Below are positions 4,790 through 38,174 of a DNA stretch of 64,000 bases, piece after piece. A model generated the notes under the pieces. The model was not told where the DNA came from, made no database searches, and saw only the letters and a program-made list of their open reading frames with translations. Position 1 is the first letter of the stretch. Each line of letters opens with the position of its first letter. The translations under genes were made by a program, and so were the position numbers. This stretch comes from Gammaproteobacteria bacterium (lineage in GTDB: Bacteria > Pseudomonadota > Gammaproteobacteria > GCA-001735895): the NCBI GenBank assembly GCA_014382695.1, contig JACNJF010000106.1, positions 15,520-79,519 on the forward strand, in the 5' to 3' direction.

Positions 4790-5059
4790 TTACTCTTCTT
4801 CGTCAAAGCGATTATTGATCAGCTTGACGATGGCTTCGAAACAGGCTGTTTCATCGTCACCGTCAATCTCCAGCTTAATCAGGGTGCCCTTGCTCGCCGC
4901 CAGCATCATAACGCCCATGATGCTTTTTGCATTGACCCGGTTACCCTTGTTATCGAGATGCACTGAACTGCCAAATTGAGAGCATAGATTAACCAGCTTG
5001 GAAGCGGCTCGTGCATGTAACCCGAGTTTATTAATGATGGTGATGTCTTGAGTAATCAT
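4790..5059 (-). CDS. ptsO: HPr-family phosphocarrier (NPr/PtsO-like)
   Basis: 89 aa with GLHARAA placing His at position 15 and NAKSIMG placing Ser at position 46, so both the EI site and the HprK target serine are kept. It is the last gene of the rpoN-linked PTS-Ntr cluster. Confidence 0.85.
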   Translation of the reverse strand: MITQDITIINKLGLHARAASKLVNLCSQFGSSVHLDNKGNRVNAKSIMGVMMLAASKGTLIKLEIDGDDETACFEAIVKLINNRFDEEE

Positions 5060-28383: not shown

Positions 28384-29010
28384 ATGTCAGCAGTAGCCAA
28401 TAGACGTTCTGTGATGACCTGTTTTTCATCACCGGTTGACCCTCAATGTCATCGAAGCCGTATCGTGTTAGCCGAAAAAGACATCACTGTAGAGATATAT
28501 GATGTGGATATGGATAATTTGCCCGAGGATCTTCTGGATCTAAATCCTTATGCCACGGTACCTACCATGGTGGATCGAGATCTGGTGTTATACGATGCGC
28601 GGGTACTTATTGAATATCTGGATGAGCGTTTTCCGCATCCCCCGCTGATGCCTGTTGATCCGGTTTCCCGGGCCAAGAGTCGCCTTGGTTTGTTCCGTAT
28701 TGAAAGTGACTGGTATAGCCTGTTGCCGGATATTGAACATGGTACCGAAAAGAAAAAAGCGCAGGCCAAGAAAGCATTAACCGAAAGTCTGATTAATTCG
28801 ATTGATGTTTTTGCGGCCATGCCTTATTTCCTGTCGGATGATTTCAGTCTGCTGGATTGCAGTATTGCCCCTATCCTGTGGCGCCTGCCTTATTATGAAA
28901 TCGAGTTACCAGCAACCTCTCGGCCGATAAAGGATTACATGAAGCGAGTATTCTCCAGACCATCGTTTCAGCATAGTTTGTCTGAACAGGAAAGGGATAT
29001 GGTCGAGTAA
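28384..29010 (+). CDS. sspA: Stringent starvation protein A (GST fold)
   Basis: 208 aa, near-collinear with E. coli SspA: RSVMT.FS...D...H..RIVLAEK..VP..VDR.L.L.....I.EYLDERFPHPPLMPV.PV.R...YFLSD.FSL.DC..AP.LWRLP. Confidence 0.9.
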   Translation: MSAVANRRSVMTCFSSPVDPQCHRSRIVLAEKDITVEIYDVDMDNLPEDLLDLNPYATVPTMVDRDLVLYDARVLIEYLDERFPHPPLMPVDPVSRAKSRLGLFRIESDWYSLLPDIEHGTEKKKAQAKKALTESLINSIDVFAAMPYFLSDDFSLLDCSIAPILWRLPYYEIELPATSRPIKDYMKRVFSRPSFQHSLSEQERDMVE

Positions 29011-29040
29011 GCATCGCTTACTGGTCAACGACTGTTAAAG

Positions 29041-29072
29041 ACCGGTATCATCCGTGATACCGGTTTTTTTTT
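29041..29072 (+). terminator. Rho-independent terminator after sspA
   Basis: ACCGGTATCA-TCCG-TGATACCGGT stem-loop followed by T9. Confidence 0.65.
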
Positions 29073-29334
29073 GGCCAGGGAAGGCCTTATACCCTGAAGC
29101 CCAGGGACGGGCGAGAAGGGTGTTTGGCCAGGGAGGGGGCCTTATACCCTGAAGCCCAGGGACGGGCGAGAAGGGTGTTTGGCCAGGGAAGGCCTTATAC
29201 CCTGAAGCCCAGGGACGGGCGAGAAGGGTGTTTGGCCAGGGAGGGCCTTATACCCTGAAGCCCAGGAGCCGATAAAAGCTCCAGGCATGATCGGCATTCA
29301 ACATCCCTGTCGTTCAAGGGCGAGAAGGGTGTTT
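29073..29334. repeat. Tandem array of 53-55 bp GC-rich direct repeats: 3 intact units plus 1 disrupted
   Basis: The unit GGCCAGGGAAGGCCTTATACCCTGAAGCCCAGGGACGGGCGAGAAGGGTGTTT occurs at 29073-29125, 29126-29180 (with a +GG variant), 29181-29233 and 29234-29266. The array then diverges and ends with GGGCGAGAAGGGTGTTT at 29318-29334. Each unit holds a CCCTG-AAGCC-CAGGG hairpin. There are no spacers, so it is not CRISPR-like. Confidence 0.9.
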
Positions 29335-29367
29335 ATTAATAAACTTGATGATATTCGCAGGCTTACA

Positions 29368-29766
29368 ATGATGACTTCTAATAAACCTTATCTGATAAGA
29401 GCGCTGTACGAATGGCTGGTCGATAACGATGCGACTCCCCACATTATGGTGGATACCACTAATGCCGAGGTGAAGATTCCGCGCGGCATCGATAAGGATG
29501 GTCAGGTGGTGCTGAATATTGCAGCGCGTGCGGTACAGCGGCTGGAGATGAGTAATACCTACGTTTCTTTTTCTGCGCGATTTAGCGGCGCATCGCAGAA
29601 TATCTATATTCCAATAGAAGCTGTGATGGCTATTTATAGTATGGAAGATGGCGAAGGCATGATGTTTGCCGGTGAATCAGCCAGTGCAGGAACATCCCGC
29701 ACGGAAGGTAAAGAGGCTGCCGATAAAAATAAAAAAAACCGGCCTGGATTAAAGGTGGTTAAGTAA
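29368..29766 (+). CDS. sspB: ClpXP adaptor / stringent starvation protein B
   Basis: Probable start is MMTSNKPYLIRALYEWLVDNDATPHIMVD, matching the E. coli SspB N-terminus RPYLLRAFYEWLLDN.LTPHLVVD, followed by an acidic tail and C-terminal LKVVK (E. coli ends ALRVVK). The ORF track start at 29287 is a TTG extension reading through the repeat array. Confidence 0.85.
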   Translation: MMTSNKPYLIRALYEWLVDNDATPHIMVDTTNAEVKIPRGIDKDGQVVLNIAARAVQRLEMSNTYVSFSARFSGASQNIYIPIEAVMAIYSMEDGEGMMFAGESASAGTSRTEGKEAADKNKKNRPGLKVVK

Positions 29767-37570: not shown

Positions 37571-37597
37571 GCCCCCAATTCAGGTATCATGCGCGCC

Positions 37598-37941
37598 AAG
37601 TCAGCTGGATAATCGCTGGCACCGTCAGGTGCTGGAGGAAAGTCCGGGCTCCACAGGGCAGGGTGCCAGGTAACGCCTGGGAGGCGCGAGCCTACGGAAA
37701 GTGCCACAGAAAATATACCGCCGGACAGCTTGCTGGACGGTAAGGGTGAAATGGTGCGGTAAGAGCGCACCGCGCGACTGGCAACAGTCGTGGCAGGGAA
37801 AACCCCACCCGGAGCAAGACCAAATAGGAGAGCTATGGTGCTGCCCGCACTGCTTTCGGGTTGGTTGCATGAGGGTCCTGGTGACAGGGCTCCCAGATGA
37901 ATGATTATCCTCGACAGAACCCGGCTTACAGGCTGACTTAT
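37598..37941 (+). ncRNA. rnpB: RNase P RNA (bacterial type A, M1 RNA)
   Basis: GGAGGAAAGTCCGGGCTCCACAGGGCAGGGTGCCAGGTAACGCCTGGG, GGTAAGGGTGAAATGGTGCGGTAAGAGCGCACC, CCACCCGGAGCAAGACCAAATAGG and a 3' ACAGAACCCGGCTTA are near-identical to the conserved cores of E. coli M1 RNA. The P1 arms AGUCAGC / GCUGACU pair. All ORFs called across this interval are non-coding. Confidence 0.93.
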
Positions 37942-38174
37942 CTAAATTCCACCTTTCCCGTCTGCTCATTTTTTACCCTGAGCGGCGGGAAAATGTGGTA
38001 ACCCATGTTAATTTTTTCAGAATTTTCCCCGTTACATTAGTAGTACTTAATATTTCACTTTAACTATGCCTGTTTAATATATGTTTTTAAATGGGATTGC
38101 CCGTTCGTCATAAAAAAGTTTGCTAAGTCCTTGTTGTTATTAAAGAAATTCTATTCTGCCAAGTGGTTTTTTAC

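Follow-up and report, generated by a model that had tools for sequence, protein, structure and literature searches.

RNA antagonists of CsrA have been studied in detail in only a few cultured Gammaproteobacteria, where they are stand-alone small RNA (sRNA) genes. The CsrA consensus obtained by SELEX is RUACARGGAUGU, with the GGA located in hexaloops on stems of ≤4 bp with AC/GU pairing, and a CsrA dimer bridges sites that are 10-63 nt apart, with an optimum of >18 nt (PMC7652899). A(N)GGA is the primary motif, and SL2 of RsmZ is the positive-control hairpin (PMC4066749). Here, we describe a tandem array of short structured units in the spacer between the sspA and sspB genes of a 64,000-nt stretch of DNA, hereafter called the window (contig JACNJF010000106.1 of assembly GCA_014382695.1, Gammaproteobacteria bacterium, forward strand 15,520 to 79,519). 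The array is akin both to repeat RNAs made up of CsrA sites and to extragenic DNA repeats; what appears to be new is that the first unit starts exactly at the end of the T-run of a terminator and that the arrays grow on the terminator side.

Several described families are close to it. TwoAYGGAY (Rfam RF01731, clan CL00106) consists of two hairpins with loops of the form C-A-Y-G-G-A-Y-G; it occurs in Gammaproteobacteria among others and has been proposed, not shown, to be a CsrA-sequestering sRNA (PMC4333381; PMC2864571). In E. coli, the sRNAs RrA, RrB and RrF lie between dual rrn terminators, just 3' of the first one; they arise when it is read through, and CsrA binds them in vitro (PMC8144298). 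CsrB and CsrC as well as RsmX, RsmY and RsmZ, all of them sRNAs that sequester CsrA, display numerous A(N)GGA motifs in the loops of their short hairpins. At the DNA level, the repetitive extragenic palindromes (REP) and bacterial interspersed mosaic elements (BIME, e.g., BIME-2) of Enterobacteria and Pseudomonas are GC-rich extragenic hairpins at gene 3' ends or within operons, and they form lineage-specific tandem arrays with changing copy number. Mycobacterial interspersed repetitive units (MIRUs), which Supply et al. are said to have described in 1997, are reportedly direct tandem repeats of 46-53 bp inside operons, oriented with transcription and variable in copy number.

The tandem array that an earlier note on this DNA had reported does exist: Tandem Repeats Finder places it at 29070-29266 (period 53, 3.7 copies, 95% matches, score 362). 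Read unit by unit, it spans 29073-29334, directly 3' of the sspA terminator, and comprises three short units of 53, 55 and 53 nt and one unit of 101 nt, with a GC content of 61% vs. 50% for the window:

29073..29125, plus strand: short unit 1, 53 nt; covariance model R1 83.6 bits, E 7e-20.
29073-29086, plus strand: hairpin 1 of unit 1, GGCC-AGGGAA-GGCC.
After the CUUAU linker, plus strand: hairpin 2 of unit 1, with UAUACCCU/AGGGUGU as outer stem and, at 29099-29112, GCCC-AGGGAC-GGGC as inner hairpin.
29126..29180, plus strand: short unit 2, 55 nt; two extra G enlarge loop 1 to AGGGAGGG; R1 74.6 bits.
29181..29233, plus strand: short unit 3, 53 nt, identical to unit 1.
29234..29334, plus strand: long unit 4, 101 nt; R1 64.5 bits over 29234-29334.

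The minimum free energy fold of a unit (-25.3 kcal/mol, 83% of the ensemble) consists of hairpin 1 with a stem of 4 bp, the CUUAU linker, and hairpin 2, in which an inner stem of 4 bp is held by an outer stem of 6-7 bp. The stability of the fold of the whole spacer corresponds to z = -7.1. Covariation was analyzed in 16 distinct units from different loci and species, with 500 shuffles and slid controls for comparison; an alignment with two hand-edited sequences (A5) served only to build the search model R2 and not for these statistics. In the two-hairpin fold, 87% of the cells are paired, and 8 of the 15 pairs are changed on both sides. The covariation score was 0.374, as compared with a mean of 0.149 in the shuffles, none of which (0/500) reached the observed value, and with at most 0.084 in the slid controls. 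Compensatory changes are found in hairpin 1 (GGCC/GGCC to GCAC/GUGC or GUAC/GUAC), in the outer stem (ACCCU/AGGGU to ACCGC/GCGGU or GCUGC/GUAGC) and in the inner stem (GCCC/GGGC to GCGC/GCGC), and even the orthologous units of two of the loci compared, L092 and L093, differ by such changes. Of the 14 units in which both bases at the foot of the outer stem are present, 13 retain a U.G wobble there. Beyond this one conserved pair, the strand bias of wobble pairs was uninformative about a fold at the RNA level.

The earlier note had proposed a different structure, in which the central CCCTG of each unit pairs with either the upstream or the downstream CAGGG, and these mutually exclusive hairpins could form an attenuator that sets the SspA:SspB ratio. 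In the variant of the window, CCCUG can indeed pair with either CAGGG. However, the upstream helix lacks covariation support: it is 75% paired, which equals the shuffle mean, and 276 of the 500 shuffles are as good. The downstream helix is weakly kept, being 86% pairable across the variants, and this is due only to the likeness of loop 2 to the outer stem's 3' arm; mutations in the outer stem are compensated by this 3' partner and not by the loop. Nor is a switch between the folds borne out, as the two-hairpin fold dominates the ensemble and has the compensatory pairs and the rank among the shuffles given above. In addition, units of this family occur where no downstream gene exists that could be attenuated, and if the SspA:SspB ratio is set by attenuation, the better candidate is the conserved terminator, which is present in relatives without any unit. 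We therefore consider an attenuator of this kind very improbable.

Both hexaloops read C-A-N-G-G-A-N-G on the sense strand and are ~26 nt apart. The loop A, the GGA and the closing C-G change rarely or never. Both N positions vary, with all four bases found at the first one. The array in the window contains seven CANGGANG sites in 262 nt, six of which are in hairpins with 4-bp stems and hexaloops. Thus, multiple A(N)GGA motifs are presented in the loops of short hairpins, as in the CsrB/Rsm RNAs, and the hairpins have the same design as SL2 of RsmZ. In hairpin 1 of several variants, including that of L092 (GCAC-AGGGAU-GUGC), the match to ACARGGAUGU is 10/10, and some variants carry an extra GGA in internal loops (AGGA in L102; UGGA/GGGA in L111). 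The geometry of a unit would match that of a high-affinity CsrA/RsmA site pair, and one unit could hold one CsrA dimer. Among the options listed in the earlier note, a protein-binding decoy fits the loops best when CANGGANG is read as a putative CsrA consensus.

TwoAYGGAY is the only Rfam family with any signal on the repeats. It scored 19.2 bits, on the L102 array only, which is below its gathering score of 43, and it had no match at E≤10 on the array in the window. Loops of the AYGGAY type are present in the variants of L102, L106 and L108 (ACGGAU, AUGGAU), whereas the variant of the window has AGGGAA and AGGGAC, i.e., ARGGAN. The alignment with the model is circularly permuted, with the inner hairpin of one unit matched to hairpin 1 of the next; furthermore, the stems of the model are 10-15 bp long vs. 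4 bp here, and the units described here are tandem and abut terminators. Weak matches to the Rfam models STnc390, fluoride and HgcG on the flanks of the array are noise.

With CsrB and the Rsm RNAs, the array shares, besides the loop motifs, a spacing of the sites that suits bridging by a dimer. The GGA density of CsrB is ~1 per 17 nt, and that of the L102 array, ~3 per 52 nt, is close to it. In contrast to these RNAs, the array does not form a gene of its own: with 0 nt between it and the sspA terminator, it continues into the sspB leader, without a promoter with a GacA/UvrY site and without a terminator of its own. Its units are near-perfect tandem copies, members of the family are found at several loci and on a phage, and the Rfam models show no similarity to it. 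RrA, RrB and RrF are similar in their position just after a first terminator, but they are single-copy sRNAs of unrelated sequence, are not built of repeated units, and are ended by a second terminator.

MIRUs resemble the array as direct tandem repeats of similar length that lie within an operon and are oriented with transcription. However, they carry small open reading frames (ORFs) that overlap the flanking stop and start codons, whereas the lengths of the short units described here (53 and 55 nt) are not multiples of three and stops are present on both strands; moreover, MIRUs are known neither for the GGA-hairpin design nor for a link with terminators. A coding reading of the array was rejected, since the reading frames rotate and both strands contain stops, one for every three units. 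A chimeric peptide used as query gave no match, and a 185-aa ORF across the L102 array was missing from the protein collection. The earlier note had an sspB ORF extended from a TTG codon read through the repeats; the longest extended ORF begins at ATG 29287, inside unit 4, and does not span all of them. A promoter inside the units was also discarded, as TTGGCC and TATACC are just 11 nt apart and a promoter scan finds none, and so was a CRISPR array, as the units are arranged head-to-tail without spacers.

The fourth unit had been taken for a disrupted copy. It represents a conserved class of long units and no random damage: the same long form, with an insert that is ~90% identical, is found 3' of a terminator at the purL locus of another organism (L110), where it is a single unit, and the two long units can be aligned over their whole length with 84 of the 101 positions identical. 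Hairpin 1 of the long unit is GGCC-AGGGAG-GGCC, and the outer and inner stems are retained. The 51-nt insert (29267-29317) is located between GCCCAGG and GGGCGAGAAGGGTGTTT, where it takes the place of loop 2, and carries a GCCGAU/AUCGGC stem that is intact in both copies. The consensus fold of the two copies contains four compensatory pairs, and their outer and inner stems differ by compensatory changes. The hairpin GGAGC-CGATAAAA-GCTCC that the earlier note saw in this unit is indeed present, at 29264-29281. The insert was also considered as a full inverted unit; this was rejected, as model R2 does not recognize its minus strand.

The repeat is not a one-off: related units occur in four independent contexts, so that it is a structured dispersed repeat, one of the possibilities raised in the earlier note. 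Related units were found at other loci but not elsewhere in the window, where neither exact and 3-mismatch pattern searches nor blastn-short nor the models R1 and R2, the latter with filters off, found any further copy; the exact 53-mer occurs twice in the window vs. 0 times expected in shuffles. Look-ups of SspB homologues revealed related arrays or single units between sspA and sspB in species whose SspB is 71-82% identical. Among these, L102 (73% SspB identity) has at least eight identical 52-nt units, L106 and L108 have a single unit, and another sister species has degenerate units. At the purL locus, a long unit follows the terminator of a gene for a Gly/Tyr-rich secreted protein that is convergent with purL. 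The arrays of L090 and L093 face a convergent gene. Finally, the phage contig L111 (IMGVR_UViG_3300042196_000075) contains one unit (2720-2800, 56-71 bits) directly after a terminator between the genes for the major tail protein and the tape-measure protein, with a further GGAUG ~25 nt before the tape-measure start.

The family is dispersed yet apparently sparse. The covariance models R1 and R2 found no further copy in ~430 kb of relatives' loci; in the window, which has the one array, a count of zero further copies in 64 kb bounds the density only to less than ~190 per 4 Mb. A 20-mer from the unit had no match in 185,579 species genomes, which means that the species of the window is not represented among them and that no other species there has the exact 20-mer; the same 20-mer was found on four metagenome contigs, at other loci. 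As these genome and metagenome scans used one exact 20-mer of the window unit each, the list of loci is biased to window-like variants. Scans of viral sequences with degenerate patterns yielded 35 loci, of which only L111 is a member of the family, the rest being chance matches in coding sequence, bar L114 and L117 (see below). A blastn search for a plasmid or phage origin gave no match. Together, the units form a previously undescribed family of 52-55 nt whose members are carried by at least one phage and by a clade of uncultured marine Gammaproteobacteria.

Whether the copy number varies, as the earlier note suggested, can be answered in part. Assemblies do differ: the window and L002 have four units, L003, L004 and L147 have two, and L001 has a scaffold gap. 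Among 20 conspecific public contigs, in which SspA is 100% identical, the four-unit form is found in two and a form with one short and one long unit in three, one has an N gap in the array, and five end inside unit 1. Since contigs break or have gaps in the array, the true copy number cannot be read from short-read assemblies, and collapse of short reads could also produce the differences. The near-identical units and these apparent differences are what would be expected of a functionless minisatellite (a variable-number tandem repeat) that arose by slippage at this locus and has no relatives elsewhere. Such an origin is scarcely conceivable, however, given the homologous units at unrelated loci and on a phage, a 5' boundary that is always at a T-run, and stems that covary between species.

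The position of the first unit relative to a terminator is exact. The terminator of sspA, which the earlier note had predicted, is real and is formed by a 14-bp hairpin and a T9 run (-18.5 kcal/mol):

29037..29072, plus strand: sspA intrinsic terminator, hairpin 29037-29068, T9 run 29064-29072.

In all cases in which the 5' boundary is visible (8/8), the first unit begins 0 nt after the T-run of such a terminator, on the same strand. The eight abutted terminators, which represent four independent contexts, have runs of T7-T9 and stabilities of -12 to -22 kcal/mol. Units occur singly or in tandem and are oriented with transcription. Such a position might suggest that they are accessories of RNA ends or of termination that act without CsrA, either as back-up terminators or as 5'-protective hairpins after cleavage in the U-tract. 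Consistent with that idea, units follow terminators in operons that need downstream expression (sspA-sspB; major tail protein-tape measure), their folds are very stable, also at the level of the whole spacer, and 2-3 U follow hairpin 2 at the end of each unit. However, with U-tracts this short and a hairpin 2 that is interrupted by two internal loops, the units would be poor terminators, as intrinsic termination takes an uninterrupted hairpin and a U-tract of ≥~5; a terminator scan found none in the array, nor is there one 3' of it. In the arrays of L090 and L093, there is nothing downstream to protect, and the strict conservation of the loops would be left unexplained. Overall, a function at RNA ends alone appears improbable.

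It is on the terminator side that arrays grow. L106 and L108 have a single unit, which abuts the T-run and has its ortholog in the distal unit of L102 and L104, a decayed one, and in L102 the at least eight identical units, which are of another variant, lie between the T-run and this old distal unit. Likewise, in the window, L090, L092 and L093, the terminator-proximal units are intact, and the distal ones are diverged or truncated. As the old, orthologous unit is distal and the intact ones are proximal, new units appear on the side of the terminator. The end of each unit, a hairpin plus YTT, weakly imitates the hairpin and T-run that precede it and could serve as the target for the next insertion. 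Neither the exact junction with the T-run nor growth on the terminator side was found described in literature searches.

These features also fit the main rival explanation well, i.e., that the units are a REP/BIME-like DNA repeat, selfish or domesticated. Their hairpins would then be single-stranded DNA signals for a strand-specific enzyme, such as a REP-associated tyrosine transposase (RAYT) or an HUH transposase of the IS200/IS605 type, that inserts 3' of a hairpin with a T-run; the GGA loops would be incidental and any effect on sspB a by-product. Like REP sequences, the units are short, GC-rich imperfect palindromes at gene 3' ends. The exact abutment on T-runs, the re-creation of a target at the end of each unit, the growth on the terminator side with distal decay, the identical copies in L102, the patchy presence at one locus among sister species, the copy on a phage, and the absence of a wobble strand bias beyond one pair would all fit. 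Furthermore, the conserved TTAT in the linker at the foot of the hairpin resembles the cleavage or target words of HUH elements; such short words are known from IS608 and ISDra2. In contrast to REP and BIME sequences, however, the units have no GT(A/G)G (GTAG or GTGG) head but start with GGCC, GCAC or GUAC, the short units are all direct and do not form alternating, inverted doublets, their density is low over the 64 kb of the window and the ~430 kb of relatives' loci, and their 5' junction with the T-run is exact. No transposase was seen near any copy, and to our knowledge, no RAYT gene is known for this repeat family. A single unit is kept at an orthologous position across species, with compensatory changes in its stems, and the variation in the A-N-GGA-N loops is exactly that of CsrA sites. 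A purely selfish or domesticated DNA repeat is possible but, on this balance, somewhat unlikely; it explains the spread of the units and is compatible with a role at the RNA level.

The reading we tentatively prefer, with a probability of roughly 0.45, is that the unit is a repeat module that places putative high-affinity CsrA sites on read-through RNA or on the sspB leader RNA, where they may act as a sponge or as a stabilizer. The array would be transcribed as part of the sspA-sspB intercistronic RNA, either by read-through of the terminator or from a promoter-like element within it (see below). Because their orientation always follows transcription, the units would be present on read-through RNA, and they would lie in the only route to sspB expression, the conserved terminator being presumably leaky. 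If the organism has CsrA, an RNA with seven consensus sites would bind it. The RNA of the array would then titrate CsrA in the manner of a miniature CsrB placed within a starvation operon; alternatively, CsrA and the 5'-proximal hairpins would stabilize the sspB part of the transcript. The last GGA on the sense strand is at 29265, 103 nt upstream of the sspB start codon, and none is found near the ribosome-binding region of sspB. As there is no GGA within 100 nt of the start, titration or stabilization is favored over translational repression, and direct repression of sspB translation by CsrA is unlikely.

Several observations weigh against a role in CsrA binding. The link to CsrA is one of motif and geometry alone, from which we infer binding as well as a physiological role; no csrA gene was found in the window or in relatives' loci by tblastn with E. 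coli CsrA as query, and the Csr/Rsm models of Rfam have no match on the array in the window at gathering score or E≤10. The array lacks both a terminator of its own and a GacA-type site conserved upstream. GGA recognition accounts neither for the CUUAU linker, which is invariant, nor for the CGAGA internal loop. With 6 G.U vs. 12 A.C, the wobble pairs other than the conserved U.G have no strand bias. Since its insert replaces loop 2, the long unit lacks the second GGA loop and has one canonical GGA hairpin left, and the opposite strand of the insert contains a single CANGGANG-type GGA hairpin. Distal units decay and arrays consist of identical copies; a repeat that is selfish or turns over rapidly would be expected to behave in this way. 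Moreover, sister species without units at the same locus (L097-L100, L105, L107 and L013) show that the element is dispensable for sspAB.

If CsrA binding is real, the units would give cells, and perhaps phages as well, another way of adjusting how much CsrA is available, with titration tied to the read-through of operons, in this case sspAB. One could go further and assume a self-propagating cassette, i.e., a 53-nt CsrA-dimer module that is copied to the first base after the U-tracts of terminators on chromosomes and phages. Units would pile up from the terminator side by a mechanism that recognizes terminators and is transcription-coupled, of the HUH type or of the reverse-transcriptase type, and the read-through of strongly expressed genes would become a CsrA-titrating signal. 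Such a cassette, which we regard as distinctly unlikely in this full form, would be a mobile source of sponges for the Csr system and a new mode of directional growth of repeat arrays. Independent of CsrA, the junction with the T-run and the growth on the terminator side are unusual among bacterial repeats and point to an undescribed copying mechanism. In practice, the family breaks short-read assemblies at these loci, which matters for the quality of metagenome-assembled genomes (MAGs) and for copy-number typing.

The gene order in the window is petA/B/C-like cytochrome bc1 genes, sspA, sspB, and, on the opposite strand, yraN-like and lpoA-like genes; the gene identities are those of Pfam families precomputed for identical proteins. 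Besides the terminator and the units, the sspA-sspB region comprises:

28384..29010, plus strand: sspA, an ORF of 208 aa, stringent starvation protein A, glutathione S-transferase (GST)-like; Pfam GST_N families.
29022..29051, plus strand: promoter-like TGGTCA-18-TATCAT, overlapping the 5' arm and the loop of the sspA terminator.
29335..29367, plus strand: remaining spacer before sspB, without GGA motif as read from the sequence.
29368..29766, plus strand: sspB, 132 aa, ClpXP adaptor; Pfam SspB on the identical protein.

The start of sspB at ATG 29368 agrees with public gene calls and with homologues, which align from residue 1-2. Counted from this ATG, the enlarged spacer, put at ~360 bp in the earlier note, is 357 nt long. 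The spacer is indeed expanded, as it is mostly 9-24 nt across 24 related species (SspA 83-91% identical; all uncultured 'Gammaproteobacteria bacterium' MAGs), a few of which have a terminator hairpin without a repeat in this spacer. The array is therefore an insertion into a normally tight operon. The orthologous terminator hairpin is present in relatives both with and without repeat units.

The promoter-like element at 29022-29051, with 9 of 12 consensus matches in the scan, is at chance level when taken alone; a TTGGTC-N17-TATCAT can be aligned across L101, L097, L098 and L106. It could perhaps be an internal sspB promoter, in which case transcription would start just upstream of unit 1 and leave out the terminator's 5' arm. 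A palindrome, AGTAAGCATCGCTTACT (GTAAG-N5-CTTAC), spans the sspA stop codon at 29005-29021. A reading as a GacA/UvrY box, which it resembles, was rejected for its N5 spacing and its lack of conservation in L101, a sister species. When the loop of the sspA terminator is read on the minus strand (window 29059), a CsrA-type hairpin, UAUC-ACGGAU-GAUA, is seen, which is not conserved in L101 or L097 and is probably a coincidence.

At the same locus in L097-L100 (77% SspB identity), which have no unit, TTCGGAGGACGCAGAGGGTTATGG stands right after the T-run and is possibly what remains, strongly decayed, of a unit's 3' half. In Woeseiaceae MAGs, the sspA-sspB spacer is of another kind and 265-272 nt long (L077 2721-2992, L080 3128-3392, L083 3128-3393), with a conserved ~35-bp hairpin that shows compensatory changes, repeated GGCTTATGT boxes and a conserved 3' part; it has no match in Rfam. 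At the purL locus, a transfer-messenger RNA (tmRNA) gene lies upstream of purL on the minus strand in L093 (42-403) as well as in L110 (1329-1703), and as this is the case in both unit-bearing organisms, the two loci are syntenic. A long inverted repeat between the gene for the Gly/Tyr-rich secreted protein and its terminator is conserved across three organisms:

L092 ~900-1040, L093 ~4840-4945 and L110 6060-6180, all minus strand: inverted repeat GGAAACTAACTCAGGTC...GGCCTGAGTTAGTTT.

The viral loci L114 and L117 are on an AT-rich 120-kb contig (IMGVR_UViG_3300023184_000046), which contains 3-4 tandem copies of a 25-nt unit in at least three places:

L114 1529-1561 and 7963-8045; L117 3685-3717: 25-nt unit TTGCACGGATGTACTTATAAACTTA, which contains a ACGGAUGU word and is unrelated to the family by covariance model.

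Elsewhere in the window, a bacterial class A RNase P RNA is encoded at 37597-37944 on the plus strand (348 bits), the sole Rfam family that reaches its gathering score in the window.

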